Assembly (NCBI GenBank): GCA_050084515.1
Contig: CM114271.1
Coordinates: 21,700,001 to 21,764,000, forward strand
Origin: Blasia pusilla
Taxonomy: Eukaryota
Length of the DNA stretch: 64,000 nucleotides
Direction: 5' to 3'
The notes under the pieces: model-generated
Seen by the model: the letters and a program-made list of their open reading frames with translations, nothing else
What the model was told of the DNA's origin: nothing
Database searches by the model: none
Shown: positions 1-45,528 of the stretch, piece by piece
Numbering within the stretch: position 1 is the stretch's first letter
Layout: each line of letters begins with the position of its first letter
Program-made: the position numbers and the translations under genes

Positions 1-429
1 ATGGAGAGAGCTTGGGAGAGGGGAGAGGTATACCTGAAGGAGAGAGAGTTTGAGAGCTCATTCTCTCTTTGTTGAACCTTTTGGCATGAGGTGGCGGAGC
101 GATGGTCTTGCTTGCCTTGTGTGTATAACCCAAGCCTCTCATTAGGTGAGTGGATTTGGTTTGACATTAAGAGAGATATGTGAGAGTGCACACATGTGAG
201 AATTATGGTGTTGTGAGATAGATTTGATCATATTTTATTGGAACCATTTTGGTATTTTTTATCTCGTTGTTTGGATGCCATGAGTTAGCATGGGATCGTG
301 CGTATTTATGTGTGTGTTTGGTGACAGCGAAATGTATACACACGACAAAACATACAAAATACAATCCCAAGTACTTTTGTATATAACAATGGGAAGTAGC
401 TCTGGGGTTTATGATTAGATGATCTCGTT

Positions 430-1290: not shown

Positions 1291-1599
1291 ATGAAGTGTA
1301 GTTACTTTCCAATGGGGTTTGTGATTTGAGATGGGAGTTGTTGGCCATTGGGAGTTTGGAAAGAGTTTTTTTACTTGCTAGTACTTTGGCCAATGGTGTT
1401 GAGATGGGTGATATTCGCCATCTTTACATTATAGCCAATACCCTCAATGACATGAGACAATCTAGAAAGAAGTCATAGAGGAGGAGACGCATATGTAGAT
1501 GCGGATGGGAGGTTCGACATGATGCTCGAGGAGATTGTAATACCATGGAGGTTGCTGCACCACATGGAGTAGTTAGTGTTAACTATGTAGTAGAGTGAT

Positions 1600-3990: not shown

Positions 3991-4083
3991 CCTCGTGAGG
4001 CTGGCCTAGAGTTTTTCCTTTATCCTAGAGTAAACAGGGTCAAGTGACAATCGAGCTTTTGGAATGGAGACGTTTATACTTTT

Positions 4084-4580
4084 TGTCACATCTTATTTCG
4101 ACGTAGTTATAGTTCTATTGCGTCGACGACATAGAGAGTCAGCAGACTCTCTTGAATGTAACTTTGTCCCAAGGTGTCGGATGAGGTTGAGGATAGGTCC
4201 GTTGTGTTAGGAACGTCATTTCTGACAACTTTCTTGTTGAGGTCTTTCACAAGCGGATGACTTGTTGAGCAAGTCACGCCCCTGTAACCTGTGTGCGCAG
4301 GTTACAAGGCGGATAGCTATTTTTAGGGGAAGAGCCTTTTGGCTCTTCCCAACCCTGAATAAGGGAGGAAGATGGCTTTCCCAAGCCATCTTTCTCATGT
4401 TGAGCCTTAGGAGCGCCTCTCTTGTATAGACGTGTGTGGGTGTGTAGGAGTTAGGGTGCTAGCATCCAGATTCTCTCATAGCGGAGGGTGGATGTGGTTC
4501 GATATGCCGATGTAGATTCATGAGTGGAGTTTTATGCGAAGTGAGGTGTTTTTACTACTTGATTTTACATGAGAAAGATA
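4084..4580 (+). repeat. LTR fragment, family A (TGTCAC...CACGACA)
   Basis: Starts TGTCACATC. The core ggctatttttaggggaagagccttttggctcttcccaacc also occurs at ~6725 and ~10860; downstream LTR sequence matches 15296-15656. Confidence 0.7.
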
Positions 4581-4733
4581 CGAGGGGCCAGGGAATTTTT
4601 TGGTTGCAATTGCAGGTAAGCAAGCAAGTAGCCTCAGTAGGGAGCCCTTGGAGACGCGTTGTCGTATCGAGAGCCTTTATTGGAGTAAGGGCATGCCTTC
4701 TAGCTGCGGCAGACGTGGTCGATGCAAGGTGAA

Positions 4734-5935
4734 CTCTCCAAGAAGTTTTCATTTTTCAATACAAAATTATTATGTATACTCTTCATTCTTTCACGACAAG
4801 TATCACAAATGGAAGTGCCGAGGCGATCACTTCTTCATAACATCCGACCCCAAAATTCATTATTATAAAATCCCTATAAACTACTTTACGCTTGTACATG
4901 ATGAAGATAGCACAACTAGTGTTAAATCTTACTTGAGCAGGCCTATTGACGTCCATCGATTGCTATATAAGGACATAAAAAAATACAATCCTATGTCCTT
5001 CCATATGTGAAGATAGGAAAAATCATCGGAGTTGGAGATTTCATGACCTTGTTCATGAACGCCTTCCCAAAGTGATAAACTAAATAGCGAGTGAACCAGT
5101 GTCTATCTACAAAGAGTACCTTGATATGGTAAAGAATGAGGAAAGGAAAGTCGGGCACAACTCGTGCTCCACCCCTATCCATGCTTGATACCCATTCTCT
5201 ACTCTCCTCAAGAATGGGCTTTGGCGGAATTAATTTCCCAAGAGGGGTAATCCACTCTCATTGGGAAAATAACAAGCCAAAACATTCACTATTTTAGTTT
5301 GTCTAAACTTCTCTAAGATGACAAGCCTCTCATCTCCACACACACCACACTCTAGAAATCTCTTGAAGAATAGACCATGGTCAAGTTATTCTCCCAAGAA
5401 GAATGATCCACTCTCATTGGAAGAGCAAGCAATCCTAAAGCCATACACTCAAGAGTGATACGAGAGAATCAAGATGTGAAATAGAAGGTGATGAATCCCT
5501 GAAGGTCCCTCCTCTTTATATACTCACAAGGGATCCACAAGAATACGAAATATAGCTACTCTTATATAGTGCCACATGGTTATCTCTCAAGACTTAGCCA
5601 ATCATATTTTGACAAAAGTAAATTTCCTCTTATCTCTTCCAAAATATCCTCTTTTATCCATTTGATATTTTCCAAAGTTCCCCAACTATCCTAACCACCA
5701 ACCAAGAATATTAAATCAATAACCTCACTATTTTACTTTTATAAAGTCATATTTTATTTATTATCTCTTTTTATTATTTTTATTATTCTAGGCCGGCATA
5801 AAAGAGGCACCATAAAGAGGTATAAATATGGGAATTTCTTTTTTTCTAAGTTAATTTACTTAATACTAATAAAACTCTATCTAACACTTAATGAAGAGGA
5901 GTTTACACACTAGCTGATTTTACTATACGATAGTG
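4734..5935 (-). repeat. Second copy of the 430-1290 repeat (probable LTR fragment)
   Basis: AT-rich insert within gypsy sequence, homologous to 530-1290. Confidence 0.45.
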
Positions 5936-6542
5936 TGTATGACATTTGTTTATCATTTTTATGTTTGGGAGGTCGTACACAAAAGCGCTATCCATTTTTC
6001 ACAGATTTCGTTGGTGAGGGTTGATGGGGGACAACAACATAGTGGAGCGGTAGTAGCGCTCAGATGTAGCTCAGACAGTATTATCGACGCATGACTAGTG
6101 AGTGTCGAGAGAGAGAAGCTTTGGGAACATCAGCCACCATGAGGGGGGCTAGTGAGAGCTAGGTCATAGCCGCCTAGGTTGGCTAGGATTAGGTTGCGGG
6201 CACGGAACCTAAGGGTTACGGAGTCGGGAGCCGGAATGAGGCAAGACATGGAAGCGATCAGGTTGGTGGGTCGGCTAATGTAGTGGTGGGCACCATGACG
6301 TCTGGTATCGGGATTCAGGCGTGCCTCCTACACACGACAACCTATACGTTAGAGCGGGGGTTTAGGGTCCGGAGTCTGAAGAGACTGCAGTTCGGGGCCA
6401 TGCATCATTAAGGCGGAGTTGCGCATAGGGTTGCACACCAAAGGTAGGTGGATGGGTTGTGCCCAACCTCGGAGGAAGGAAGGAGATAGAAGGGATAGGG
6501 CGCGAGCATAAGGACGCAAGTTTTTAAGGCTGTGAGGGGAGA

Positions 6543-6975
6543 TGTCACATCTGAGTAGTCGATAGGCCGAGATATATCGTGGATAGGACGTAGGAGCCAG
6601 CGGACTATCTTGAGTGTAACTTTGTCCCACGGTGTCGGATGACAACTTTCATGTTGAAGTCTTTTAGAGCCGGGTGACTAGGTCACCCGCCCCTGATAAC
6701 CTGTGCGTGTAGGTTACCAAGGGGATGGCTATTTTTAGGGGAAGAGCCTTTTGGCTCTTCCCAACCATATATAAGAGAGGAGGATGGCTTTCTCATTTTT
6801 CTCATGTTGAGCCGTTGGAGCACCTCTCTTGGATGTGTGTGAGATAGGACTAGGGTGCTAGCGTCTGGATTCCTTGATAGCGCAGGGTGGATGAGACTCA
6901 ATATGCCGATGTAGATTGAGGAGTGGAGTTTAAGGCCGGGTGTGCCATTTTTACTACTATTTATTTTACATGAGA
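6543..6975 (+). repeat. LTR fragment, family A, preceded by a purine tract
   Basis: gaggggaga (PPT-like) directly precedes TGTCACATC; homologous to 4084-4580. Confidence 0.7.
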
Positions 6976-6979
6976 AAGA

Positions 6980-7460
6980 TGGCTTAGGTTGGGACCTACT
7001 GTGTTGCTAGACGCAGCGAGAGTTGGACCACGTGCCCATCGTCTACGATGGTGGTGGACGAACCTGATACCATTAGAGGAACTGAGTCGAGCATACGATG
7101 GAGTCCAAAGAGCACCACATCTCACAATGGATGCTATTTTGGGATCAGGGCATCGATCTGAGGTGGTGACGCGGGATGATAGACCACCGTTGGCAATGGT
7201 CAATAGGGTGGGGGAGTTGAGGGCAGCCTTACCTACGTTGGTGAGCTTCCTAGCATCCCATGCCTTTCGTCAAGGAGGGTTAGGCATGATTTGGGATGAG
7301 GTGACCTGAGCATTAGAGGATCCTAGAGTAGATGAGCGCGAGCGCGCCATGGGGTTTGCTACAGGTATTACGGTGGTGCCAGGTATGATTGAGGCATTTT
7401 GGAGATAGGTGTTGGGGTAGGTGATGGACCTCAAGTGTCTCACATGGATATTTAGCCTAG
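6980..7460 (+). pseudogene. Gypsy-borne DNMT3-like C5-cytosine methyltransferase, C-terminal half (motifs VIII-X)
   Basis: LLDAARVGPRAHRLRWWWTNL resembles DNMT3 IDAxxVSAAHRARYFWGNL. ERERAMGFATGIT...R*VLG*VMD resembles EMERVFGFP..YT...RQRLLGRSW. Confidence 0.8.
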
Positions 7461-7756
7461 GTATGGCTGAGCAGAGACGAATGCGAGTGTCATCCATATC
7501 GTCACGAGTTGGACCATTGCCTATAGGGTCTGTACAAGCATTGGCTGGGGGCAAGACGAGGAGAGATAGGCACCCATGGACTTCCTGGGACGTCGTTCAA
7601 GCAGAGAGTGCGAAGGCGGCCATGGAAGCACATGTTCAGTTTTTGGATGTGGAGCATGGTCTAGGAGGTCAGAGTGAAGCGGCTGTTGCGAAGGTGGCTA
7701 GGGTGGCTACATAGAAACCAAAGCCGAAGGTTGCGTCCTCTCTGAGTGAGGGCACG

Positions 7757-8825
7757 ATGGAGACTTGGGAGCCTGTGATAGGTCTCAAGTTGATAGGAGG
7801 AGAGCGACAACGAGTTCATAGGTTTCTGAGAGGGCATGTAAGTTGTTTTGCCTTCAGTATGAGAGACTTGGGTACGCTGAAGGGTCCCGAGATACGGATT
7901 GAGTTGGCTAATGATACGCCGATCTTTCATCGACCCTACAAATATTCTGATATGAAGCGAGCCTTGATTCAGAGCACGAGTCAGAACTTGTTGGAGGCAG
8001 AACTTGTGGAGTTATCACATGTGGAGTATGCATTTGCCACAATCATGCCGACGAAGAAGGATATGTATGGCAGTTGGACGGATAGGCGGATGTGTGGAGA
8101 TTACCGTCCTATCAACCGACAGACGAGATCAGATCGGTACGCCATGCCTACTCCTGAGGAGATCTTTCATGCGGTAGGGCATGCAAAGATCTTCAGTACT
8201 TTAGATCTCCGTGTTGGCTATCATCAATTTCCTATCACGTTGGAGGACAAGGAGAAGACAACATTCTAGGGGATAGATCAGTTCGGGAGAGATTGCTTGT
8301 ATCAGTGGCGATTCTTACCATTTGGGTTGAAGAACGCGCATGTAGAGTTTCTGAGAGTGATGGATAGAATTCTGGCTGGCTTGGATTTGTTACGATGTTA
8401 CAAAGATGATATTCTTATCTTTAGTTCCACGGTTGAGGAGCATGAGCGACACTTGGAGGAGGTGTTTCGGAGATTGCAGTTACATGGACTGAAGTTACAT
8501 CCAGGCAAGTGCAGATTCTTTCAAGAGTAGATTGAGTACTTGGGACACACCATATACGCGAGTGGGTTAGGCATTCAACAGACGAAGGTGGAGGCTATTG
8601 CGCAGATTCCATGCCCTACAGATGTGAGCCGAGTACGAGCGTTCCTGGACTGGCAAACTTCTATCGATGGTATGTCAAGGGTTTAAGTGCGATCCCAAAG
8701 TCTTTGACCTTGTTGACGAGACTTGATCAGGTTTGGTCGTGGGGAGATGATCAGGAACGAGCATTTCAGGAGCTCAAGGACAGGATGACATCCTCAACCC
8801 ATTTAACAAAGACCGGTTAGGGGTT
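7757..8825 (+). pseudogene. Ty3/gypsy reverse transcriptase (disrupted)
   Basis: RMCGDYRPINRQT, LDLRVGYHQ, LPFGLKNA, CYKDDILIFS (YxDD), GLKLHPGKC, YLGH, GLANFYR; in-frame stops and a frameshift; truncated at 8829 by another LTR. Confidence 0.92.
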
Positions 8826-8828
8826 TCC

Positions 8829-10855
8829 TGTGATACCCACAATTTTGTACTTTTGAAGAAATATATCTTTTCATTCAACGAAGACTTGTATATACATTAT
8901 AATTTTGATTATTATTTATTATCATGGGGAGGAATGAGTAAGATTAAAGTGAATCACGAAGCTCTAAGGACAAGGCAGAGAGATAGAAAATCAAGGATGT
9001 GCCTAAGAGGAGAGGGGACTAAAATAACGAAGTCTCAAGACCCAGCAAGAAGCTTCGGAACGACAACGAAGCTCAACGAAGCTCTGTCTATGAAGTGCTT
9101 CGCTCTATAACGAAGCATAATGAAGCAAGAAGAAGAAGAGAAAGAAGTACTTCGCTCTTGTACGAAGCATGAAGAACAAAGCATCTAGAACAAGAACCAA
9201 GAATGGAGAGCTTCGTCTTCAGATCAGGAGAAAGAGCTTCGTCCTCAAGCAAAGCAAAAGAGGTCCACACTTAGCAGCAAAGCGAAGCTAAGATTGACAG
9301 TGATTTCAAGCGATACATAGTTAGAACAGTTAAAATAGGAAGAGACGCAACCCTTTGTATCAAATTGGTCGTTATGACAGTTTTGTTCTGCGGATTCATA
9401 ACCATCATAGGAAAAGCAAAGAATACCATAGATCTTGGTAGTTACAAAAGTTGAAGAGCCATCAACTTCATCAAAACCGCTTCGAATCTTTGGATCATTC
9501 CTCCTTCAGAGAGTATTTAAGAAGCATAGAAATAGCTATCATTATCATTCTCTTACGAAGTCCTCATGCTGTAGGAATGGTCCTAGTAAGGAAGTAGTAC
9601 CCTCTCGAGCTTGTATACACTTTGAAGCTTTCTCATTCTTGATGGAGTAGTAAAGCAATCATTCATTCATTCATTCAGATGTGCGATGCTTATGTCTGAG
9701 TATTCTTTTTGGGTCTGCAGAGTGAGGAGTGAATCAGGCGAACCTTTCTCATCAATGGAATAATCAACATAAAGTTGTAGGAAATCTGTTTGACAGAGAG
9801 TAGCCTGCCAAGACGGATTGAGTTCCGAAAGTAGGAGAAGCCAACTTTCATGTTGAGGTCTCTATGAGGTTTCTTGATATCGAGAGGAAATCTACCTGAG
9901 CATGTTGTCAACTCCACTAGAGAGAATTGAGAAAAGAACCTTTGGTACTAAGAAAGTTACAAAGATATTGATAAGACATTGAATATGAATCATACACATT
10001 TAAATACAACTATTACAACAGAATTGTGATTTCGAACTCTCTTTTCATCAAACAATGATCATGTTGGGGATCAAACTTATTAAACGATTGTAAAATAGAA
10101 ACTCTAGTACATTACATAGAGAACCAGAAACTTTTTGGCGCTACTGCCGAGGATCATAAGCTTTGCTGGAGAGGGAGAGAGACACATGGGAAATCCAGGA
10201 GCGGGGAAAGAAGCCTCGTCTCCTATAAGATCCAACCAGCTAGTTCTTACTGAAGACCATCTGCTATCTCTAGCTATCCTCCTCAGACAATGGATGAAAG
10301 AAGATAACAACCGGTTCGCTGCATTGGTGCTAGAAAAGATATAACAATTAATTAGCATTGTCAAAAAACCAGTCGCCGAACGGTGCTTTGCCCATGACCG
10401 TCAATTGTACTTGGTCATGACCCGGTACTTCTGTTTATGGGAGGAAAACCTGGCAGGAAGATTAAGAGCACCTGCACACTCATGTAGGCTTTAGGAATTA
10501 GGAAGATTTAATTTCCCTCCATGAACCCCTACCTTGTGGCGATCGTGGGTGCAGAAGTAAGCTCCCGAATTCCAGAAGGGACTCATGGAAGTCTCCCGAC
10601 CCTCTTCGCGAGATCAGCGAGCAGATCGACGCAATAAGCAACAAGAAGATCACCCGTCTTGGAGACCGCCGGGGGTGTCTCCCAGTCTTCGTCTTCGCAC
10701 GAAGCCCAAGAGCAAGAAGAGGGACAGGAATACGCTCCCCACCACGTCTCCAGCCAGCTCGCAGTCGGACGAAGAGTCAACCTGGAATCCCTTTAGGGAC
10801 TCCGGGGACAAGGAGCCGACCAAATCAACTAGATCAGAACCGCTGCCTCCTCCAA
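8829..10855 (+). mobile_element. LTR retrotransposon family B: 5' LTR (~8829-10130), PBS and 5' internal region, truncated
   Basis: Starts TGTGATACCC and is colinear with 37436-39385. tttttggcgctactgccg at ~10133-10150 resembles the Athila-type PBS TGGCGCCGTTGCCG. Confidence 0.8.
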
Positions 10856-11245
10856 GAGGATGGCTATCTTTAGGGGAAGAGCCTTTTGGATCTTCCCAAC
10901 CCTATATAAGAGAGGAGGATGGCTTTCCGAAGCCATCTTTCTCATGTTGGGCCGTTGGAGCACCTCTCTTGTATGTGTGTGAGATAGGACTAGGGTGCTA
11001 GCGTCTGGATTCCTTGATAGCGCAAGGTGGATGAGGCTCAATATGCCGATGTAGATTGAGGAGTGGAGTTTTAGGCCGAGTGTTCCGTTTTTACTACTCT
11101 TTATTTTGTTGTGTGATCTCCATGTATATGTATGAGTTGATTTTTGTACATGTGTGGATCGACCCGTGTGTGGGGAAGATCGGTGTTGGGTGGTGTAGAT
11201 GTGACCAGCGATGTATGTTGTGTAGCGATATGTATGCACACGACA
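10856..11245 (+). repeat. LTR family A, 3' part ending CACGACA
   Basis: Homologous to 6720-6965 and 15296-15656; ends ...gcacacgaca. Confidence 0.75.
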
Positions 11246-14200
11246 TAGAAGAAGGAGTCGAGATGGGCCTATTAGGGAGAGCGGGGAGCCAAGGAGGGCT
11301 CGGCCAAATTTCGAAGGAAGAAAGGAGTAGGTTAGGGAAAGAGCGCGGCCCAGGCTGCATAGGGCACCGCGTGGAGCCATTATGGCTCTAAGATACGAGA
11401 GAAGGCTGGCGAGCACATCCAAGGGATGGGTTGAGCCAAGACTGGGGCCCACAAAGGGCCGCATGCCCGTACGAGGGAGGTTGGGAGGTTGGCAGCAGGT
11501 GGGAGAGAAAGAAAAGAGCCATTATGCCTTCGCGACACAGGGAAGGAAGAAGTTCGAGTGAGATTGGCGGGGTCGAGTAATGGGTCCGTGGTTGAGGTCA
11601 CATGGAGACCAGGTAGGCCAAGGTTTCATGGTAGGCAGGGGTACCAAGTCAAGGTCAACGTGGTTGGAGCTAACCTGGTAGAGCGAAATAGTGTTGAGAC
11701 AAGATTTTCTTGGGTGCGGTTGATTGAAGGCAAGATGAGGATTTGCACCGACAGTTGATGTTGGAGAGTTGATGACAGAGTGTTAGTATGCCAATGGATA
11801 GTCTACATCTGCTAACGGGAGGTTTGAAGTGCTGGTCAAGGAGAGTGTCGTGCCGTAGAGGTGGCCATACCACATGGAGGAGTGAGTGTTGACAGTGCAG
11901 TAGGTTGGAGGGCATGATCAGGCTACCCATTCGAGTCCCTTTTCCCGCACTTATCTTGTGTGATTTAGAGTAATGGGTATTGGGTAGTTACTCGTGTTAG
12001 ATTGGTATAGTCATGGTGATGAGTGTAGACTCCTTTCATGTGTAGCATGTTGGTGGATATACGGCGGTTGCCGAGTAGGGGTCGTGTGTATGACTCGAGT
12101 GTATGTTTGTAACTTAGGTGAGTTAGTCACGAGGCTCATGTTGAGCCCGAGTGTTGAGTGTACATGAGGCCGGGTGTGTTGTCACGGGATTATCATTAGC
12201 GTAGGTGAGCTAGTGAGGAGTATGGGAGACTCTCGGTGAGTCTGAGTACTTGAGCGGGTGAGACAAAGTTGTCATCACGGCGTTCTTCCAAGGTTCAGAA
12301 GAACAGGGTAGTGCAAGCAGTGGGAATGGAGTGACATGGAGTGGCGTGAGGTATTGAGGAGTTTCTAGTGAGGAACCATCTTGACTTTCGTGGTTGGATC
12401 GTCCTCACTAGACAGCAGGTATATGGTGACGAGATCGTAGACGGGGACGATGATACGTGGAGAGAGATGGACGACATGGGCCACCGAGGCATGCGTCATT
12501 TCTCGGGTGCGGTAGGCACCATAGATTTAGATGACTTCACCTAGGAGTTTGACACGTGGTGCGACTTCTAGGAGATACGGACCCCTATGCGGTTCAACCT
12601 TTTTATGGCATTAAAAGGGGTTGTTCCAGCACTTGGAGGGTCCGCCGATGGATGATTTCATGGATTTCCAATCTGTAGAGATCGATGCTTGGAGAGTGTA
12701 TTGGGCTCCAAGGTATGTTTACACTAGTGGCCGTGAGGGGTATGATGGGATAGTGACAATGGAGAGACCTTCACCATCAGCCCGAGGACTAGATGGAGGG
12801 GATGGCAGTGAGAGTGGTGAGGTGGCAAAGACCTCTCGTGGTAGAGGACCGCTGAGTTTCAGTCCTACAGTGGAGTTGGGGCGGAGCAACCAAGGTTTGT
12901 GGACCGACAAGCTGAAGAGTCTACAAGATTTTCAGCAGAGATCGGGTGAGAGTCTGAGGGAGGTGTTCATGCGCATACGACGGTTGATTGTTGCCATATA
13001 TGGGATGATTGAGGCGTAGTCAGTACAATATTGGTCCGGGGTGCTCGATGAGGAGCTATGGAGGAGAGTTTGGATGTGATGTTGCTTCACACAGCGAAGC
13101 CCACATTGAAGGTGGTCTTCAAGTTGTCTGAGCAGGTAGAGCTCAACATGAGTGAGGAGCATATGGTGACCACAGGATTTTCGCAGGATTTGATGGGTCG
13201 ACGAGTAGGAGTAGACCCACATGTGCCCCAACATGCACCATTACCACAGGAGCGGGCCAGTGGACCCAAAGAGCAGGGCGGGTATCACGAGCCAATGAGG
13301 CAACGGCCCGTATCGGCTTATGTTTCCCAACAGGGACCAGGGTTGGCTTGTTGGACGTGTAGTGGGCACATAGGCAGAAGGACTACCCACAACATGGGAG
13401 AGGGCCACGGGCACCTCCGATTGCTCAGGAGCCATAAAGGATGGCCCCACCACAATTACACTATGATCATTGTCACCGATATGGTCACACTAGGGATAGG
13501 TGTTATGATCTTTGCCGGGAGGTACATCTAGGGATAGGCAGAGGACTTGGGTTCGAGAGAGTTGGTGGAGATCGAGTGGTGGATGATCGTGGTGGTAAAG
13601 TGCCATCACCACTCAGGGGAGATAGAGGACGTGCACCCAATGCAACATCCTCACTCACATCGATCAGTTGGAGCAGAGGACTGTTGCCATGACGATGATG
13701 CAGCCACTGATAGGCATGGAGCCGAGAGTAGCTAGTGTGGCTCTAGCCTCCACATCGTATCAGGAGACTGGGGAGTACTATACAAGGTTGAGGTTTATGT
13801 GTAGTGCGACTTAGGTTGAGGCTGATGCAGTGGTGACTTGCGGTGCTGCAAGAGTAACGGAGCCATCAAGAGATGGGGTTGAGATTGACCCACAGGAGGG
13901 GACCGATGAAAGGCAGGCGAGTGTTCCCCAGTTGTTCACATTGTTAGAGGCACATCATACACCGTCGACGGTGCCTCAACAACCGGTAGTACCCACCAGT
14001 GGGATAGGTGTGTTGACGTCACAAGGAGTTGGAGAGACCACTCCTATGCGGGCTTGGGTGGAGCCAATGTCAACCATGTTGTTGGAGGTGGCCACTAGGG
14101 TGAGCCACACTCCATTGTTTTCCGCCATGGAGTTGGCAACGTTGGGAGTTGGACGAGTGGAGGTATTCCTGCTGGCCGCCACATTGTGTGAGCGTGGAGA

Positions 14201-15295
14201 GGTGACTGCCTCTCATTTAGAGGTAGTTGAGGAGGTGGTGGACTTTCCCTTGGAGCAGGTGCTCGGGACGTCCTCCATTGAGTCATGGCATGCGGCGGTG
14301 GCAAAGTTGGTAGATATGCTAGTTAGGCCAGCAATAGAGCGAGCCATGATCTCACCAGGTATGGTGTTGTTGGATAATCGAGCAAGAGTTTTTCGGTGGG
14401 TTAGTCCCATAGGTACGGTGTACCACCCGTAGCGCGTCTTACTTGATTCGGGAGCGCAACCCTTGATGTTAGGGAAGGTGACGTGTTTGGCATTGGGTTT
14501 ACGAAAATGTGACATTGAGTGTTGTCCCTTTCAGACATAGACCTCTAGTGGGGGCGTATCACCCACGCAATACATGACTCGATAGGAGTTGGTGGTTAGA
14601 CTCGAACCAGAGCATGACTCGAATAGTGCACTCGCGCGATTACGACACTAGAAGAGTCGTATGAGGTGTTGGTAGGGAGTATAGTGTTGTATCCCCTTGG
14701 TTTCATTCTGGTTTTTTGGGAGGAGACGGTTTCTTATCGACTAGGATGGCGATCAGGTGATGGACGGATGAGCCATCTACCGATGTTGTTTGCAGGTAGT
14801 AGTGGTGGTCGACCACGTGAGGATATGGTGATCACGTTGGCAGCATTCATAGGCGATATTTGCTGATCATGAGGGTTCGGGGAGAGGGGCACACATGCGA
14901 AGGACATTCTCGTAGTGGATAGTCCCACAGAGAGACATGCCAAGAAGGGTGTCTCTTCCCATGGTGCGGAGCTTCATTATTATTATTGGGGATGAGCGTT
15001 GAGATGCAAGGAGTGCACATGAGCTTCTGAGGCAGGCGTGGAGCCGTGGTTACGATTGGAGCAGGGTACGAGAGTATTAGATCTCTTCAACGGGATCAAA
15101 GGCAGGTTGCTACAGTGTGGCAGTATTGTAGGGATGACGACACCAATGGTGCTAGATGTGTATAGCTAGGAGATCATGTCAGGGACATATGTGTATGCTA
15201 TCTAGAGTTAGGGGGACCCAACTGCCAGCTAGGGGGGCGGTTGTGGGGTCCTAGTGTATATGCATGAGTATGTTTCATTTATGTGTAGATCTATC

Positions 15296-15656
15296 CGTCC
15301 AACCCTATATAAGGAAGCAAGATGGCTTTTCCAAGCCATCTTTCTCATGTTGAGCCTTAGGAGCGATTCTCTTGCATAGACATGTGTGAGTGTGTAGGAG
15401 TTATGGTGCTAGCGTCCAGATTCTCTCATAGCGGAGTATGGATGTGGTTCGATATGATGATGTAGATTCATGAGTGGAGTTTTAGGCCGTGTGAGCCGTT
15501 TTTACTACTTGATTTTGTTGTGGGATCCTAGTGTATATGCGTGAGTATGTTTTATTTATGTGTAGATCTACCCATATGTTGGGGAAGATTGGTGTTGTAT
15601 GGCGTATAGATGTGACCAGCGATGTGGGTTGTGTAGCGATGTGTATGAGCACGACA
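15296..15656 (+). repeat. LTR family A fragment
   Basis: Homologous to 10895-11245; ends agcacgaca. Confidence 0.7.
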
Positions 15657-15680
15657 TGTTGGATATCATAATAGTGTATA

Positions 15681-17030
15681 GAGGAGGGTGTTAGAGTATT
15701 AGATCTCTTCGCACGGATATGCACGCAATAGGTTGCAATATTGTAAGTACGCATAAGAGTGGGTTAGTATCTTTATGTGGAGCGAGACGAGATCATATGA
15801 TTAGTCTCATTGTGCCATGTAGCAAGGTTGGTCTAGAGGTATCTTGACTTATTTCTCATATTTGCAGTACGGGAGGTATTAGCATGAACTACCCGCCAAA
15901 ATTTTTTTGTTAGGGGTACATGACCTAGATAGGGTTGGCATGATTTTTTTGGTGATTGCTAGATGGCCATGTCAAGGTCATTCATCGGCTGGTTGAGGGT
16001 TGGGATTGCAAGATTCAAGGTTAGGGGTATTTTGGGAGATGTTGTGACTATTACAATACTTGCAAGAGACTCAAACTTGTTCTCTAGCATACATTTTGAA
16101 GAACGTACCATTGTTGGGAGACTCTCGTGCACGAGTGGCCACGAGAGTGTATCAGGTGAGTTCGTGGTTGGGACTTGTCATATTGTTGGATGGGTCGAGA
16201 GTTGGATCGTGCGCACATTGTCCATAGTTGGGGTGGAAAGACTTTCTACCATGAGAGGTAGCGAGGCAAGCTTATGATGGAATTCAGAGAGCACCACACT
16301 TGAAAGTGGATATTATCTTAGGTCTACGACATTGGTCTTAGGTGGTCACACGAGATATGAGACCACTATTGGCGATAGCTAATAGGATGGGGGAGTTGAA
16401 GGTAGCCTTACCTATGTTGGTGAGCTTCTCAACATCCCATGCCTTTCATTAGCAAGGTTGCACAAAAATGGACAAGTTTGTCCATGGGATGGACATGCCG
16501 AACGGGTCCTCCATCCACGCTCGAGCCCCACTATGAGCCCACTAAGCTCATAATATAGACTCGGGCTGGACAAGATCGCAACTCGTTTTGTAGCCTGCAT
16601 GATTCCCACAAGGTGGGCTGCGCTACGCGTGCCCTAAGCCCTCCCTACTCAGCCCTCATGCCCATCCTGAGCGAGCTTGCCAAGGGCTACAAAATAAGTG
16701 TGGGCTCGGCCATCCCGGGTCTAACTTATGGGCTTGACGGGGTCGGGTACAAACCGCGGATATCGTGGTCCACACACACATGTCCGTCCTAGGGATGGTC
16801 ACTAGTCCGTAGACACAAACTTTTTCCATGTGCAACTTTATTCATCAGGGAGGGCCAAGCATGATATGGGATGAGGAGACCCGAGCATTAGAGGAGGCCA
16901 CTGTGGTTGAGTGCGAGTGTGCCATGGGGTTTGCTATGGATCCTACAACGGTACTAGACGTGATAGAGGCATTACGGAGACAAGTGTTGGGGTAGGTGAT
17001 GAACCTCAACTATCTCACATGGATAGTTAG
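15681..17030 (+). pseudogene. Gypsy-borne DNMT3-like C5-cytosine methyltransferase domain (motifs I-X), pseudogenised
   Basis: Manual translation gives motif I GVRVLDLFARI...YLYVERD (15687-15789; a second motif I, RVLDLFNGI, at 15071), motif IV LVIARWPCQGHS (WPCQG 15964-15978), motif VI YILKNV (16090-16107, ENV to KNV), motif VIII LLDGSRVGSCAH, and motifs IX/X ECECAMGF...RRQVLG after the MITE. Confidence 0.85.
16453..16840. mobile_element. hAT-type non-autonomous element (MITE), 388 bp
   Basis: Imperfect TIRs caaggttgcaca / tgtgcaacttta; 8-bp TSD ttcattag (16445-16452) / ttcatcag (16841-16848); the empty site is visible in the homologue at ~7266. Confidence 0.8.
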
Positions 17031-17241
17031 ACTAGATATGGATGAGAAGAGGCAGATGTGAGTGTTATCTGCATCATCACGTCTACAAGTTAGTGCATTG
17101 CCTATAAGGTCCGTAGAGACATTGAAAGGGGGTGAGACGAGGAGAGATAGGCACTCATGGACTTCCTGGGACGTCGTTCGAGCATAGAGTGCGGAGGCAG
17201 CTAGAGTAGCACATATGCATTTTTTCTAGTGTGGAGCATGA

Positions 17242-18244
17242 TGTCGGGACCCTCATGACCAAACGAGTGCCAAAGCGGAACATCGGAACATTAGCGGGCG
17301 CATGCTAAGATGGTTTGCGCGTTGGAGTGGTCTCGAAGAAGAGACAAGAGACAAGATGCAAGCGAGGCTTCGCGTTTAAGATGTTGTGTTCGCGACTGAG
17401 AAACTTGGACCAAACGCGGAACAAGAATTGAAAGGAGTTGAGTCTAGAAAGTGGGTTGCCAAAGAAAGGAATCCGGATTTGGGACGCCATTAGCGTTTGA
17501 GAGTTTTGAATGTATTTATGGCCATAACTTTTAGCGCCAAGATGCGTTTGGATTGAAAAAGGGTGCGTTAGAAGGCTTATGGAAAGCAGGTTCAAATGCA
17601 CTAAAGATCTTTGCAAACGCATAAGCAGTGGCTGAGAAACAACCCGGAAACGACTGTAAGTAGAGTCGGGTTGAGGGCCACAATGAAGGGCCCGACCCTC
17701 CTTTCCCAAAGGTGGGGCGTTATTGGAGAACCCCAGAAGTACTAGTAAGGGGAAAGGTCTCCAAGAGTGCTTGGAACTCGAACCCCACTTTGGGCGCCAC
17801 GGGGCGGCTCAAGGGCATGGAACGGATCGAGAGTTTGGGGTTGGGTTGGAAAACCTGAACCAAGTCTATGGAGGCGATTTTAGACGTCCCTCTTGAATTT
17901 CACTCTGCGACTCAATTACTTGGGTCTCGGTTTGGAACTCACACGAGGTCCGTTGAACAGTTGGGATCGCTAGGCGCGCAAGTGCCGTTTTAGGTTCCTG
18001 GACTAATCAGGAAGTATGTTCCAAGTCTTGAAGGACTTACCATGTTTTAGAAACTAGGAAGTAAGGAAGGTTGAGCTTGATGAGACGCCGAGTTGAGAAC
18101 TCGGTGGGTTGGAACGCTGGTTGGCCCAGACCCGACTAAAGAGAGTGCGTGTTTGGGTGCAGATCCGCGATGAGATTGTGTCCTACTGAACGTAAGCTTC
18201 CGCAACAATAAAGATTGACTTTCAAGGAGAGTAGGGGCACGACA
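17242..18244. repeat. Solo LTR, family C (~1.0 kb)
   Basis: TGTCG...CGACA termini; homologous along its length to 49334-50365. Confidence 0.85.
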
Positions 18245-21200
18245 GACTAGGTATGGATGAGAAGAGCCAGATGTGAGTGTCATCTGCATCGTCACGTCTA
18301 CGAGTTAGTGCATTGCCTATAAGGTCCATAGAGACATTGAAAGGGGGGTGAGACGAGGAGAGATAGGCACTCATGGACTTCTTGGGACGTCGTTCGAGCA
18401 TAGAGTGCGGAGGTAGCTAAAGTAGCACATATGCATTTTATCTAGTGTGGACCATGATGTGGGAGGTCAGAGTGGGATGGTTGTAGCAGAGGTGGCTGAG
18501 GTTGCTACTACATTGCAACCAAAGCTAGAGGTCTCGTGATGGGTCTCGAGTTAACAAGAGAAGAGAGGCGAAAAATACATAGGTTCTTGAGTGGGCATAT
18601 GGGTTGTTTTGCTTTCAGTATGAGAGACTTGGGTACTTTGAAGGGTCTCAAGATACGAATAGATTTGGCTAGTGATACACCGATCTTTTGTCAATCCTAC
18701 ACATATTTCGACATAGAGAGAGCCTTGATTTAGAGTAGGAGTTAGAACTTGTAGGAGGCAAGATTGGTGGAGTTATCGCATGGGGATTATGTATGTGCCA
18801 TAGTCATTCGACGAAGAAGGATATGTATGGTAACCGGGCAGATAGGCGGATGTGTGGAGATTTTTGTCTTATCAACTGACACATGAGGTTAGATGGATAC
18901 ACCATACCTACTCATGCCGAGATATTTGATGCGGCAAGGGACGCAAATATTTTCAGTACTTTCGATGTCTATCAAACGCGTTTTGACTTGATCTGTTGGA
19001 TTTCTTGTACTAACGGTTCCATTATTGATGAAGCAACTAAAATCAAAATTAAAATACGCGGAGAGATATGAGAGGGACAAGTTTATTTAGTGATATTTAG
19101 TGAAGTGGAAGTTTTTAACAAGCATATTTATATTATTACCGGAGAACACCTTTTCAAACTCGTCTACTTTTGACCTCTGCAGTTCCAATCAATAGAATTG
19201 TCTTTCCTATTGAACTAATTAAAAAATTAAAAATTGATTCAAACTAACAATTGAAAAATTTGAAAAGTAATTATCATTTTAGAAGGTAATTTAAATCTAT
19301 TGGGTATTACGATACTTTCCCTATTTACTTACAACTAGTGAGGTGTGCTCTGCAAGTGTAGATTTCAAAATCTCCATCATTAACTCTCTTCAACCATACA
19401 CGATCATAAAAATGAAAAATGTCATACTTTAGGGCGGCACGAAGAAGAAATAATTCGAACTTAATGGACACGTGTCGAATGGGGAGGAGGGTATGAATCG
19501 AGAGGAGGTTCGCTAATAATAATATAGATTATTAATTTAATATCTCTCCCGGTAACTCTTGTCCCAAATTTTTGTTAGGAAGTACAAAGGACATGGCCGT
19601 ATGTACTATACGGTGAACAAGAACCGTATAAGACCGTACGGATGATTTCTGCCGGCCGAATGTACGGATGATATCGAACATCACATGATTTCACGTCGAG
19701 GACACATAGTCGAGGACACCAAATGGTTTCACACTTTCACTTCTCCAGAATTATTGCGTCGACAAGTGACACGCTTGAAACAAAGAAATGTCTTTTCGCC
19801 CGATTCCACTGGAGACAATGAAAACCAAGTGGAAAGTAAACGTGTTTCAAACTTGGGACTTCAGCCCATGGGGCATCGCATCACACATTTTGCCAACTTC
19901 TGGGGGATTCCTATGAAAACTGGCGCGAGAGGTAGATTCTCTCGCGCCTTGGATTTTTGGGTAATAGAATCGTTTCGACTCCATGAAATACTCCGCAAGA
20001 GTTCAGGTTTGTAGTGAGTGATCATGATCCGATCTTCCCCTCGCTCAAATTGCATGATGAAACTACAGTAACCTGAGCAAGAAGAATCGTTCGTCTGAGA
20101 CAATTAACACACCAACGATATTCTGTGGTTAGACAAACGAATCTTTCAGAACTACCGGTGGTAACTTGTAAGGTAAGACCCTGGGTCCTGACTCTCTGTT
20201 CTTCGGTGTAGTAGAGAAAACTGTGTCTTGTAGTGAAACAGGTACTATGGCAGTTATTGATGAACACTACCGGCGTGACATCTCATTTATTGTCTTCTAC
20301 CAAGCCCTCCAACAAATCCGATGAATTATTTACCAGGTCAATATCCTTCTAGCCAACTGGTCAGTCGTGTATGCAAGAGAACGGGTTGAAATCGAATTCC
20401 GAATCCAAAAATCCAGCAACTACTATTTCTTCCAAATTTTCGACGGGTACGAACGCACCAACAAAATAAGCGCAGGACATTTCCAGGTCAGCGAACAACG
20501 CCAAAGAGCATGGCAATGGCCCTGGAAGGCTGGAATCACAACGATGGCATCTTTTGGCCAACATTCTTCATCACAACTCTCAATGTTAGCCATTTATGAA
20601 AACAACCTTATTCATAAACGAACGATAAGAATGTGAGAAGCAGTGATAAATTGCAGATCAGACACTCGACACATTGACTGACTCTAGAGCACGGTTACAA
20701 ACGATCGTTTTCCCCACTTAGACTTAAGATTCAAACAATGAGCTGTGTCAAAGACAGCCTTTATCCAAATAAGTGACTACTGCGATTATGCGTCGCACCA
20801 ACTAAAGGGGGAAAGCACTCATACATAAAGGAACTTACAAATCCGCCGCGAATCAGCTCCATCGTGAAGGATGACAACCCGTGCACGAGTGAACTAGTGT
20901 TGCGAACGGAGTGGATGGGCAAATTGGATCGGACCCCGCCTGCCCTTTATCTTTCGATGACCTGTCAATCTATTCAATTCCAAAAGTGAACCGTTCGGCC
21001 AGTTATGACCTGTAATTCGTTTCCCCGGTTTGTAAAGAAGCAATAACCATGCATGGTATTCAAGACCCGATCCGTTCTTCGCTCCATAATCCGTCTGGAA
21101 GCCAGGTGGACGAAAGATCAGAGCTCGCCTGTTCAACTGGTCATTTACTAAACTGACCCGTTATTCAGTTGTCACCCTCGTTTCCTTTGCTTAGGTAGCC

Positions 21201-23056: not shown

Positions 23057-23512
23057 CGTCTATGTGATGGAAGTTCACGAAGACTATTCCGTCTATCGCC
23101 GTCATCAGGTGAGTGATTGAGACTGGGACGAACGAAAACAGGAAAGACACTTAATTCGAACGTGCTTCTTTGACGGGAACGCAGCCATAACGGACGGACG
23201 GAGTGTCGCAGCGTGTCCGTGTCCTGCGGCGCTGCCGCAAGCTCTGTTACGGTTTCCTTTCAGGACGGCAGATATGTTTCGATAATGTTCCTCTTCTTCT
23301 TCGCTGGGTAGAGATGGAAATGTCGTCTTTGCCGAGGTCGCTAGAGGAAGGGAGCGTGGAGGAGTGAGTGCCTGCGTGTGACTTCGAAGGAGGCAGATTC
23401 TGTAGTAAGCCGTAGAGGAGCGAGGGACGGTGATGTGAAGAGTGCGAAGCCGAGGTTGGAAGGGCAGGGATAAGAGGCGGAGGCTGAGAGTGGTGGGAAG
23501 AGGAAAAACGCG

Positions 23513-26500
23513 ATGGAGGGATCCAGTTCAGAATACGTGGTTTTGTTGATCTTCTCAGCGCTGGGATTTCTGCATGTGTTGCGTGCGGTTTCGCAATTCG
23601 CCAGATGGATTTGGGTAACGTTCTTGAGGCCTGCGAAGAAGCTGTCTAAGTATGGATCATGGGCACTGGTGACTGGCGCAACAGATGGTATCGGACGATC
23701 CATGTGCATGCAGCTGGCGCGTCAAAAAATCAATGTGGTGGTAGTCGGCCGATCTCCTGCGAAAGTTCAAGAAGTGGTGAAGGAGCTGGAGACGAAGCAC
23801 AAAGTGCAAGTGCGATCAGTGGTTGTGGATTTCACCGATGGGGATCTTAATGCTAAGATGACAGCAATTGAAAGCGCCATTACAGGCTTGGAGGTAGGCA
23901 TACTAGTGAACAGCGTCGGGCTTTCATACCCTTACGCTCGTTTCTTCCACGAGGTTGATGCGGAGCTCACTTTCAACCTCATCAGAGTCAACGTCGAAGT
24001 GACGACTCGAATGGTGCAGTTGGTACTTCCTGCCATGCTCAAGCGCAGACGAGGGGCCATTGTCAATGTTGGATCTGGAGCTGCATCGTGTCTTCCCTCA
24101 GATCCTCTATATGCACTTTACGCTGCATCCAAAGCGTATGTTCTTTTCTTTTTGAACTCCATGTCATGTCAGAGATTGAGATGATTTATTGTCTCTGTGC
24201 GTGTTCGTGTGAGAGAGAGTACTTATTAAGTAGTGCCTGTCATATCCTTACGAACATAAACCCGCCCTGGTGGGACGGTGCTAGAAACTGGGATGGGTGT
24301 TGAGAGAGGAAGAAGGTAACGGTACCACATGAGAGGACGGAGACATTTTGATGTAGTGTGAGTGCTCAGCATACATAGCGTTTGTGCGGAGCTTCGAAGT
24401 GTCAACCAAGAGGCTCTTCACAACACTCTCTATCTCACCTGATTGGTATCCCCAATACACGCTACGTACCAGTGCAGCAGCTTTAGGCAGTGAATCTTCA
24501 TTGCTGAATGTGTGGAATAGTTCAAGTGTTATCAGCTTAGCAATATGAGTATATATACGCTCTTGCTCTCTGTTTTGTGAATTTTGTCCAGGAGACCAGG
24601 AAATGACTAGAGGTTTCATCCCCGTCATCACACAAGGTGCAGAATTTTGGATGTGTTCCAATCCTGCTTTTCTTGCGGTTCCAGGGGATTGGCCCCGTCC
24701 TGAATGTGAACTTCAACCGGGTTCCTAAGTGAGGGGTTCCCTGCAATAGTTCTTAAGTTTCCCACGGAGGAAGACATTTTCATGGCTTCCTCCGTGGTGT
24801 TTTGCTGTGAGTGTTTTCCTACTCCTTTGTTTTAATGGTATCAACAAGTGGTTCTCCTCTTGTTCCCACAGTTCAGGCCCTGTAGAGAGGTTGTCCGATT
24901 GGACGGTGCATGGACTCTTGAACTTCTATTGTCGAAAATTTGGCATGCTTTACTGGGCCTCCTTTAGGTCGAAACGGTCCTTATTAACACTTTAGGATAG
25001 CTATCGGAATCCTTTACCTCCGCCACTTCAACTTGGCGATGTCAAGTCTATCCTCTGGGGGCTCTCACACCAATTTTGTGTAGAAGCCCACATCATACTC
25101 ATAATTCTTTCAGCTGCACAGCTTCAAGCCTGTCCCTCTGTTTGGTGTTGTCAATTCCTACTGCTGCACCAAATTCCAGTTAATGATGAATGGTGTGCAG
25201 AATGACAGAGCACTGTGTCATGGGCCTTCTTGAAGTCCAAGAAGAAGTACCAGGTGGGCTTCCCTTCATTTTTTGTACCCTAGAAAATCTGATGGAAGGT
25301 GCAGATGTGATCCGCACATCATATGGACAAAGACAGAAAGAGATTGTACACACTAAGTAGTGACTGTCGTAGCCTTGTGACCTTAGACCCTGCACCCTGG
25401 TTGGATGGTTCTAGAGACGGATGGGTTTAGAGAGAGGAAAGAGACTACTCATTAAGTAGTGCCTGTCGTAGCCTTGTGACCATAGACTCGGCGCCCTGGT
25501 TGGACGGTGCTTGAGACTGGGATGAGTGTAGAGAGAGGAAGAAGTGAAGAAAGTACCATATGAGAGAAGGTTGACACTCTCATATAGTGTGAGTGCTGAC
25601 CAAACAATGTATTGGTGGGGAGCTTCCAAGTGTCAACCAAGAAACTCTTCACCACACCATCTACTTTACCTGATTGGGATCCCCAATAGACTTTACTTAC
25701 CAGTGTAGCAGCTTTGGGCAATGAATCAAGGCTACTGAATGTGTTGAACAATTCTGGTGTTACCAGCTTAGCAATATCAGCATATGCTCTTGCTCTGTGT
25801 GTTGTGAATTTTGTGCAGGAGACCAAGTAATGACTAGAGGCTTCATCTCCATTGTCACACAAGTCGTAAGATTTTAGTTGTGTTCCCATCCTGCTTTTCG
25901 TATGGTTCAAGGAGATTGCCCACTCCTAAACTTGAACTTGAGCGGGGGTTCCCAAGCAAGGGGTTCCCTGCAAATAGTTCTTCAGTTCAGCCTTTTCGGG
26001 ATATACCATCCAAGAGAAAGAGGTCAGACATTTTCATGGCTTCCTCCGTGCTGTTCTGTTGTGAGCGTTTGCTCGCGGCTTTGGTTATGGTATCCACAAA
26101 TGCTTTCTCACCTTGCTCCCACAGTTCAGGCCCTGCTGGGAGCTTGGTTGCTTGCACAATCTCTTGAACCTTTTTTCGTCCAAGATTTGGCCTGCCTTAT
26201 CGGTCTTCTTTGGGTCCAAGTTTTCCCCATCACCTCTTTAGGATAGCGATGGGAGTCAATTGTCTCCAACTGCCTCCACCATTTCAACTTGGCAATGTCA
26301 CGTCTATCCTCCAAGGGGTTCACTCCGAGTTCTGATCTCACACCAACTCTGGGTGTGAGGATGCTGATGTCATACCCCGGAACGCCTTCAGCTGCACAGC
26401 TTCAAGCCTGTCCCTTGTTTGGTGTTGGCAGCCCACACTGCTGCCCCATATTCCAGCGAGGGACAAATGGTAAGCAAAATGACAGAGCGCTTTACTTCTG

Positions 26501-45308: not shown

Positions 45309-45528
45309 TGTTCCCGAAAATGCCACCTCCTCGATAACGAAATTACTTTCTGTGCAGGATGAGTCGCGTTGATGAGTCGCTCCGATGAGTCGCCTCAATG
45401 AGTTGCCTCGATGAGTCGCTCGAATCGTCTCGCGATGAGTGGTCGTGTAAAGCGCCCCTTGGTATCTGGTCCGCTAAAGAGCAATCAAGATCCCGAAACA
45501 AAAAACCTGAAATGAGCGAACGCTAGCC

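Follow-up and report, generated by a model that had tools for sequence, protein, structure and literature searches.

Hosts defend themselves against transposons mainly by cytosine methylation, which makes it paradoxical for a transposon to bring along a de novo methyltransferase. So far, only dinoflagellates and a single charophyte alga have been reported to have such elements, and no activity could be demonstrated for the gypsy version. The accessible text of de Mendoza et al. 2018 (PMC5890265) describes KnitGypsy-Dnmt3 of the charophyte Klebsormidium nitens as a gypsy long terminal repeat (LTR) element with a DNMT3-type domain, proposes that transposon-borne DNA methyltransferases (DNMTs) methylate retrotranscribed DNA, and reports de novo CG methylation in yeast by the Symbiodinium DIRS enzymes. 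The accessible part of a 2026 preprint (10.64898/2026.05.21.726589) refers to "streptophytes (Gypsy-DNMT3)". Here we analyze a 64,000-nt stretch of the genome of the liverwort Blasia pusilla (assembly GCA_050084515.1, contig CM114271.1, positions 21,700,001 to 21,764,000 of the forward strand), called the window below, which holds two relics of a Ty3/gypsy-type retrotransposon with a domain of this kind.

The region is very probably made up of two old, dead, and rearranged copies of a streptophyte Ty3/gypsy-type family in a liverwort host, a family whose polyprotein runs gag, protease (PR), DNMT3-like methyltransferase, reverse transcriptase (RT), RNase H, and integrase (INT). All coordinates are positions in the window, and all parts of both copies lie on the + strand. 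Copy 1 (12467-18975, +) consists of decayed Ty3/gypsy-type pieces that include a C5 methyltransferase domain and ends by about 19068. Its parts, with the LTR-like blocks X3 and X4 and with relatives given by their P numbers, are the following.

10852-11245 (+): LTR-like block X3, core plus "S" tail, ending in ...CA, 5′ of the copy 1 leader and gag
12467-14920 (+): gag-protease, matching residues 1-801 of P0277 in six tblastn alignments (summed E 3e-120)
13349-13369 (+): zinc knuckle, degraded
14439-14459 (+): protease motif LLDSGAQ
15023-15170 (+): duplicated stub of DNMT motif I, 68% column identity to 15681-15830, weak tblastn match
15074-15103 (+): VLDLFNGIKG (motif I) within the duplicated stub
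15210-15239 (+): purine tract directly 5′ of X4
15242-15656 (+): LTR-like block X4, interrupting the DNMT, with TG...CA ends and a TATA box at about 15306
15240-15296 = 15517-15573 (+): short internal direct repeat of X4
15681-15872 (+): DNMT motifs I-II, matching P0277 residues 879-941 and P0007 residues 1287-1339 (tblastn), 5 in-frame stops
15696-15722 (+): second VLDLF motif I (VLDLF itself 15696-15710), aligning best with the relatives
15877-16503 (+): DNMT motifs IV, VI, and VIII and target-recognition stretch, 7 in-frame stops (tblastn and hhalign)
15961-15984 (+): motif IV, WPCQGHS
16093-16116 (+): motif VI, ILKNVPLL, K-N-V replacing E-N-V
16183-16218 (+): motif VIII region, R-x-R lost in this copy
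16448-16840 (+): about 390 nt of unclassified sequence, inserted relative to copy 2, where P0277 residues 1125-1152 partly re-align
16819-17184 (+): DNMT motifs IX and X and linker, matching P0277 residues 1125-1246 (tblastn, E 1e-19), 2 in-frame stops
16909-16932 (+): motif IX
16975-16992 (+): motif X
17248-18243 (+): piece of another repeat, about 1 kb, inserted between the two arms of the 220-nt linker duplication
18500-18975 (+): N-terminal part of RT, with 7454-8209 = 18244-18969 at 74% and tblastn matches to P0278 residues 1249-1332 and P0079 residues 1412-1467

Copy 2 (1645-8775, +) ends at about 8825. It lacks the N-terminal half of the methyltransferase, and no such half was seen in the translation of 1-360 upstream of it. 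Its parts, with the LTR-like blocks X1 and X2 and a third, isolated fragment of the same family on the other strand, are as follows.

356-1286 (+): non-coding stretch A1, 5′ of the copy 2 gag, repeated at 4980-5928
1645-3979 (+): gag-protease fragment, 68-76% nucleotide identity to 12142-14553
3865-3885 (+): protease DSG motif, LFDSGMQ
4084-4579 (+): LTR-like block X1, starting TGTCAC and with a TATA box (four-way alignment of the X blocks, blastn)
4980-5928 (+): A2, second copy of the upstream stretch, between X1 and X2 (blastn)
about 6480-6542 (+): purine-rich tract directly 5′ of X2
6543-6980 (+): LTR-like block X2, abutting DNMT motif VIII and 92% identical to X3 over 256 nt
6989-7660 (+): C-terminal half of the DNMT in one frame with 3 in-frame stops, motifs I-VI missing
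7004-7066 (+): motif VIII
7331-7357 (+): motif IX
7397-7417 (+): motif X
7805-8775 (+): RT to the start of RNase H (RVT_1), matching P0079 residues 1330-1649 (tblastn)
62605-63426 (-): third, isolated gag fragment, matching residues 30-320 of P0277, P0278, and P0289 (tblastn, E 1e-5 to 1e-12)

An earlier note, made from the letters of the sequence alone, had drawn an element over 12491-18965 in which the ordered C5 methyltransferase motifs I, IV, VI, VIII, IX, and X are flanked by a DSG protease on the 5′ side and by RT on the 3′ side. An element does lie there, but gag starts earlier, at 12467, and an LTR-like block stands at 10852-11245. All of the motifs were located in that order, with motif VI reading KNV rather than ENV, and the motif I that the note had picked out (15074-15103) is the duplicated stub, the best-aligning one lying at 15696-15722. 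Its description of a second copy with motifs VIII-X followed by RT was borne out (7004-7417, then RT). Its statement that the element encodes a methyltransferase was not, as both copies are dead and nothing is still encoded. Matching copy 1 to P0277 takes 9 tblastn alignments, in which there are 26 in-frame stops and the frame changes 7 times; gag-protease accounts for 12 of the stops and 5 of the frame changes, and the DNMT part, broken by three inserts, for 14 in-frame stops and one frame change. The stop-to-stop open reading frames (ORFs) on the + strand of 12000-19500 are short and frame-shifted, yet they hold the motif strings. In copy 2, residues 9-672 of P0277 are recovered in six alignments (two overlapping) that use three frames and contain 20 stops.

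The domain order that the window holds in pieces is seen whole in relatives. P0079 (2188 aa) and P0152 (2327 aa) each carry, in one ORF, zf-CCHC, Asp protease, PF00145, RVT_1, RNase H, and integrase; PF00145 covers profile positions 4-233 in them, and the RT-RNase H part of P0079 matches the Ty3 Gag-Pol structure (2.3e-91). In the window itself the gypsy features are PR and RT; tblastn with the relatives gave no match to RNase H or INT in either copy, and the RNase H-INT order is seen in P0079 and P0152. RVT_1 matches copy 2 with E 1.4e-23 on the read-through 7715-8530 and 2.1e-17 on the ORF 8270-8527.

The window's pieces are also collinear with closer relatives. P0277 (Mp_4g09160, 1278 aa, gag-PR-DNMT) aligns in order with copy 1 over its residues 1-1246 (tblastn; DNMT parts E 3e-56 and 1e-19), and P0278 (Mp_6g11220) and P0289 (Sphagnum fallax) give single alignments on copy 2 that run from the DNMT into RT at 48-49% identity. 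The copy 2 DNMT half is 55% identical to P0277 (E 2e-62) and 58% identical to P0276 (E 2e-66) by tblastn, and 6974-8530 stays in a single frame from motif VIII via IX and X into RT, with 5 stops. Compared with each other, the two copies show 68-79% piecewise nucleotide identity (1645-3979/12142-14553, 7017-7658/16196-17240, and 7454-8209/18244-18969). When the translation of 6974-7714 was used as a phmmer query against 1.84 billion representative proteins, 693 matches were obtained at E<=1e-3, 368 at E<=1e-10, and 16 at E<=1e-30. PF00145 is found in 16 of the 26 relatives scanned, directly N-terminal of the stretch that matches the window, and in 12 of the 15 closer relatives scanned; in P0007, for example, PF00145 spans 1345-1444 and is followed by the match to the window at 1448-1613.

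We collected 246 relatives, and all 246 have the DNMT domain by jackhmmer annotation. Fifty combine it as PR-DNMT, DNMT-RT, or PR-DNMT-RT(-INT), and the window belongs to this class; 115 are RT-DNMT, DNMT-INT, or RT-DNMT-INT, and 81 are fragments with the DNMT domain alone. These counts bear on the idea that a host DNMT3 gene or its retro-copy gave rise by decay to the methyltransferase-like stretch, which would then lie amid gypsy debris by accident. DNMT3 is a host gene family in bryophytes, according to the accessible parts of PMC5890265 and PMC6453930, and the region is a patchwork rich in transposable elements, so the idea has something to build on. However, the window has two junctions of DNMT and RT, of which the one in copy 2 is in a single frame; single alignments with P0278 and P0289 cross from DNMT into RT, and P0277 crosses from gag into the DNMT; and 165 of the 246 relatives combine the DNMT with PR, RT, or INT in two fixed orders.

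The trees speak against a host gene as well. We built a FastTree tree from 172 DNMT-domain rows, namely 170 proteins with an envelope of at least 250 aa (the 76 shorter of the 246 were dropped) and the two window rows, and a quick IQ-TREE tree from 54 hand-picked rows under LG+G4 with no mixture model, whose supports are from the Shimodaira-Hasegawa-like approximate likelihood ratio test (SH-aLRT) only. The 54 rows are 40 of the PR-DNMT-RT class with near-duplicates removed, 12 of the other class as outgroup, and two from the window. The window copies are sisters with support 97 in both trees. In FastTree the pair sits in an 18-row clade (99) with 12 Marchantia rows, Calypogeia, and three further rows; the PR-DNMT-RT class forms a 46-row clade (81) and the other class a 125-row clade (88), with one long-branched row outside both. 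In IQ-TREE the split between the PR-DNMT-RT and RT-DNMT-INT classes has SH-aLRT 100, and a 15-row bryophyte clade (99) unites the window pair with Sphagnum, Calypogeia, eight Marchantia rows, and three further rows, while Closterium groups with P0079 (95) elsewhere in the PR-DNMT-RT class. The order inside the bryophyte clade departs from the species tree, as Sphagnum, not the window, stands beside Marchantia (87); we do not rely on this inner order, which comes from short rows and a quick search, the Sphagnum row having 30% of its columns filled. The window rows thus nest within a clade of element-borne domains, and a host-gene origin is very improbable and close to refuted.

We next consider which kind of methyltransferase the family carries. 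Copy 1 shows the canonical order of motifs I, IV, VI, VIII, IX, and X; copy 2 shows it for VIII-X and retains A-H-R-L-R (motif VIII) and E-R-E-R-A-M-G-F (motif IX). Neither copy could be a working enzyme, as the copy 1 DNMT has 14 stops and copy 2 has 3 stops and is without motifs I-VI. Intact members have a full catalytic set: the F-G-G loop for S-adenosylmethionine, the P-C-Q cysteine, E-N-V, R-x-R, and the E-R-E-R-A-M-G-F / L-G-Q-A tail. In the alignment of 10 family sequences from which we made the family profile A3, residues C408, Q409, E451, V453, H490, R491, and R493 are invariant in all ten, which argues that the methyltransferase domain is under selection.

Among solved structures, P0277 matches the DNMT3A catalytic domain best (1.7e-8), followed by DNMT3B and 3C, with HaeIII at 1e-3 and tobacco DRM at 2.6e-3. 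With profile A3 the values are 1.3e-18 for DNMT3A, 1.6e-17 for DNMT3C, 7e-17 for DNMT3B, 1.5e-8 for HaeIII, 2.2e-7 for DRM, 1e-5 for HhaI, and 0.0025-0.005 for DNMT2, and the match to DNMT3 consists of three collinear stretches that correspond to motifs I, IV-VIII, and IX-X. For P0079, a more distant member, DRM (1.3e-5) scores above DNMT3A (0.012). An AlphaFold2 model of Calypogeia P0276, computed from the alignment behind A3, has block values of the predicted local distance difference test (pLDDT) of mostly 70-94 over residues ~300-640, which are the DNMT part, and is poor outside it (mean pLDDT 56). In a Foldseek search of the PDB with this model, the top 50 listed matches are all DNMT3A, 3B, or 3C chains; the best has E 1e-15, and the target-normalised template-modelling (TM) score is 0.75-0.78 over ~330-340 columns. 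Going by profile and predicted fold, the earlier label "DNMT3-like" is correct at the level of the DNMT3/DRM group, with the motif order of an unrearranged DNMT3. The host enzymes DNMT3A, 3B, and 3C (2qrv, 6w89, 8tci) share with the element domain the canonical motif order and the motif VIII string A-H-R-x-R-x-x-W-x-N. The element domain, in contrast, is only ~22-24% identical to them, is without PWWP or ADD domains, forms part of the polyprotein of a retroelement, and is longer between motifs VIII and IX.

Several observations weigh against our reading of the region as two copies of such a family. The curated cut-off of Pfam PF00145 is 22 bits, and none of the 28 single stop-to-stop fragments and none of the three read-throughs of the window matched it; 15877-16503, translated with X at the stops, reached a sub-threshold 16.5 bits (E 0.006, profile positions 66-118). 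Because the window's own translation is below the cut-off, the family assignment is carried by the relatives. Those from Marchantia, Calypogeia, and Sphagnum are automatic gene models known from annotation alone. A complete LTR pair, a primer-binding site, or a target-site duplication could not be established at the window copies. Between the protease and the DNMT of copy 1 stand X4, its purine tract, and the duplicated motif-I stub, and in copy 2 gag-PR and the DNMT are about 3 kb apart, with LTR-like and non-coding repeats between them. Because these LTR-like blocks and inserts interrupt it, the continuity from PR to DNMT is uncertain at the locus and is seen only in relatives. Finally, no gypsy DNMT3 is demonstrably active: the yeast assay of KnitGypsy-Dnmt3, as given in the accessible part of PMC5890265, yielded no methylation and was called inconclusive by its authors.

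The Pfam result might be taken to mean that the motif matches arose by chance in translated junk DNA, as Pfam alone gives no above-threshold match on the window's translation. Against this, the matches to the relatives and to the profile reach E 1e-42 to 1e-66, and the domain is present in two independent copies in the window that are 73-79% identical in nucleotides over it. In hhalign, 15877-16503 matches profile A3 with a probability of 100%, E 1.1e-42, and 52% identity. Chance is hardly credible and is refuted. In the PF00145 search that the earlier note had named as a check, the window's translation stays below the threshold; the family profile and the relatives, which themselves pass PF00145, speak for the domain.

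The X repeat has four copies, all in the orientation of the element and none elsewhere in the window (four-way alignment, blastn), which share a core of ~245 nt with a TATA box and have TG...CA ends, and purine-rich tracts precede X2 and X4. By these sequence features the X blocks look like LTRs. X1 and X2 enclose ~2 kb containing A2, which is 70% identical to A1 over 965 nt (blastn), and X4 lies between two diverged (68%) motif-I stretches of the copy 1 DNMT. We dropped X as an intron or internal promoter of the family, as Marchantia ORFs run uninterrupted through that position.

Copy 1 may be two adjacent pieces rather than one element: an internally deleted non-autonomous derivative (10852-15656), made of LTR, leader, gag, PR, a short DNMT stub, purine tract, and LTR, followed by a 5′-truncated DNMT-RT piece (15657-19068). 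X4, with its TG...CA ends, TATA box, and purine tract directly upstream, resembles a 3′ LTR, and X3, upstream of leader and gag, a 5′ LTR. The motif-I stretches around X4 are 68% alike, which is the divergence between copies 1 and 2 (68-79%) and unlike a fresh target duplication, and copy 2 has the same order of gag-PR, X, and DNMT-RT, which this account would explain as an old segmental duplication of the composite. On the other side, the left deletion would end and the right truncation begin within ~45 codons of each other, an odd coincidence if they were independent; the second insert (17248-18243) is also flanked by a duplication (220 nt, 94%), hinting at repair-type insertion; the 5′ end of X3 is cut, leaving no target-site duplication to compare; and no tRNA primer-binding site is recognisable by eye after X3. 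We regard the two-piece account as quite possible, if somewhat short of an even chance, and it is compatible with the family assignment.

Copy 1 may thus be either an internally deleted element beside a truncated one or an element with repair-type inserts that duplicated their flanks. As the parts follow each other alike in copies 1 and 2, a single composite was perhaps duplicated long ago. Two inserts of copy 1 (15023-15830; 17029-18463) are flanked by long direct duplications of the sequence that they interrupt, of ~150 nt at 68% and of 220 nt at 94%, that far exceed the length of an ordinary target-site duplication. Around the second insert, 17029-17247 = 18244-18463, and 17399-18244 within it is 71% identical to 49519-50365. 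The insert at 16448-16840 is bracketed by blastn matches between the copies (7017-7268 = 16196-16447 and 7266-7658 = 16841-17240). The 5′ end of X3 is truncated by a fragment of another transposable element. A different retrotransposon, present in two copies that are 82% identical over ~2 kb (8829-10853 and 37436-39387, +), sits with its first copy between the two DNMT-bearing relics, broken off at the start of X3; its ORF 39029-39904 has a Retrotrans_gag domain (E 1.7e-9).

We mapped one DNA run and three RNA runs on 1-20000 at likeness of at least 95%, with depth summed over both directions. The runs are not necessarily of the window's individual, and most mapped reads are 95-99% alike and lie only partly on the stretch, which indicates that they come mostly from other copies. 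DNA depth is 0.7-1.8 over the copy 2 gag-PR bins (668-4002) and ~0.9-4.7 over the copy 1 DNMT bins (15342-16675), and it is 224 in the bin 10673-11339, which contains X3. Over the DNMT bins 15342-17342 the RNA depth, based on 6-12% of each run, does not exceed 0.4. Cautiously read, the X repeat is abundant, the coding parts of both relics have few close copies, and neither relic is appreciably transcribed in the sampled RNA runs. About 100 DNA reads connect 11245 to 6543 with two letters between, which indicates that the end of the X repeat abuts its start in other genomic copies. In the three RNA runs, 51 reads connect 303 to 11209 with 14 extra letters between, and many reads run off at 246 and 262; these junction reads indicate that another, transcribed copy of the abundant LTR-like repeat has the parts 246-330 and 11209-11245 adjacent.

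Base composition also differs along the window. The copies on 1-20000 are strongly G-rich on the coding strand (G 29-33% versus C 18-19%), with a GC skew of +0.17 to +0.30 in 2-kb windows that is near zero in the remaining window. CpG observed/expected is 0.53-0.72 in the element and 0.72 in the whole window, a difference too small to indicate past methylation.

The host is a liverwort, and the earlier suggestion of a land-plant genome was right. A single-exon very-long-chain 3-oxoacyl-CoA reductase gene (KCR-like short-chain dehydrogenase) lies nearby at 23474-24181 (+), and its protein is 78% identical to that of Riccia fluitans, 79% to Marchantia polymorpha, and 73% to Riccia sorocarpa, the next being ~62% (Ginkgo-like, Sphagnum), which points to complex thalloid liverwort affinity. 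Farther away, 39900-47000, 51000-52200, and 53300-61000 are large repeated blocks (83-93% identity, two or three copies) that look like an unclassified repeat family; their long ORFs at 55318-57438 (-, 706 aa), 41138-42478 (-, 446 aa), and 46545-47735 (+, 397 aa) have no Pfam match. The blocks contain tandem arrays (43801-44019, 45676-46076, 57803-58084, and 59341-59874) with periods of ~64-67 and 133 nt, some units of which have a hairpin-like palindrome.

The family is better preserved in other bryophytes. Calypogeia fissa has a DNMT that is 56-58% identical to the window's, Sphagnum fallax has one gene model (BDL97_09G086500), and Marchantia polymorpha has 15 protein clusters with 53-55% identity to the window and 82-99% among themselves in the DNMT part, although some clusters may represent one locus annotated in two assemblies (the P0277 cluster has 18 member sequences). 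The Marchantia models include Mp_4g09160, Mp_6g11220, Mp_8g17980, and Mp_2g26090. Taken together, the Marchantia, Calypogeia, and Sphagnum models are 53-58% identical to the copy 2 DNMT half, are collinear with it as gag-DNMT or DNMT-RT, and fall in the same clade in both trees, and unlike the dead window copies they are long ORFs of 714-1333 aa. From the 82-99% identity among its copies, the family looks much younger in Marchantia. All of these models are named only as hypothetical proteins in their source databases, and searching the literature by identifier turned up no mention of any of them.

More distant relatives of the PR-DNMT-RT class come from the Zygnematophyceae, namely three proteins of Closterium sp. 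NIES-65 and NIES-53. They make persistence from streptophyte algae plausible, and the family may descend vertically from charophyte elements. The earlier note had proposed that the lineage persisted and amplified in this genome. Persistence is thus plausible, but amplification is not borne out: the window holds two DNMT relics and one gag fragment, and the one DNA run shows near-baseline depth over the coding parts. On balance we lean towards the view that liverworts and Sphagnum, at least, still host a streptophyte-wide gypsy lineage with a DNMT3-type de novo methyltransferase between protease and RT, and that the Marchantia polymorpha family is young, multi-copy, and largely open-framed.

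In intact members the methyltransferase is translated as part of Pol, between protease and RT, and is thus made in the particle where cDNA synthesis occurs. By analogy with what has been proposed for the algal elements, its targets would be cytosines in the DNA that the element reverse-transcribes or in nearby chromatin. If the liverwort family is as we describe it, a genetically tractable land plant could be used to test the function of a transposon-encoded methyltransferase, for which self-methylation of cDNA, mimicry of host marks, and interference with de novo methylation by the host are candidate roles, and counts of DNMT3 genes in bryophyte genomes may be inflated by such elements. The window adds only dead copies, and its value is as a pointer to the family; together with their open-framed relatives, the liverwort relics move the phenomenon into land plants, including a model with genetic and methylome tools. 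The DNMT occupies two fixed positions in Pol, preceding RT in streptophytes and following RNase H in chlorophytes, which shows a long history of the module in green-lineage gypsy elements.

We found in the literature no description of DNMT-carrying retrotransposons in liverworts, mosses, or other land plants, a point on which the PDF supplements of PMC5890265 and the bioRxiv supplements may bear; the accessible survey table of PMC5890265 has no Marchantia or Sphagnum, and the accessible part of the PMC12344493 supplement has no Marchantia entry. The family is a new host lineage for a known kind of element, not a new kind, and its proteins are already public as hypothetical.

Among gypsy elements, those with the order RT-RNaseH-DNMT-integrase-PHD carry a homologous DNMT that is 34-46% identical to the window's and has the same motif VIII and IX strings, but there the DNMT stands after RNase H instead of before RT, a PHD finger lies at the C terminus, and the domains form a separate clade. 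Named members of this class are Scenedesmus ("pol"), Haematococcus, Chlamydomonas eustigma, and Monoraphidium among the chlorophytes and the prasinophyte Cymbomonas. The green-algal class (P0026, P0027, P0046, P0105, and others) ends in the PHD finger where chromoviruses have a chromodomain, and some members also have a G-patch.

The systems described by name in PMC5890265 can be compared from its accessible text. SymbioDIRS-Dnmt3 and SymbioLINE-Dnmt of Symbiodinium are likewise retrotransposon-borne C5 methyltransferases, the DIRS ones of DNMT3 type, but they belong to the tyrosine-recombinase DIRS and the LINE classes, in another host kingdom, and are treated there as an independent acquisition. 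KnitGypsy-Dnmt3 has, like the present family, an unrearranged DNMT3-type domain inside a gypsy Pol in a streptophyte host. It differs in that the host here is a liverwort and the copies are dead, and the comparison, lineage and DNMT position included, is by description only; the nearest named algal relatives are from Closterium, with no Klebsormidium among the named matches. The "A-coding-B-A-B" repeat layout given for KnitGypsy-Dnmt3 in the legend to Fig. 4 of PMC5890265 resembles that of copy 2, which runs A1 (356-1286), gag-PR, X1, A2 (4980-5928), and X2, a resemblance that we note and do not claim.

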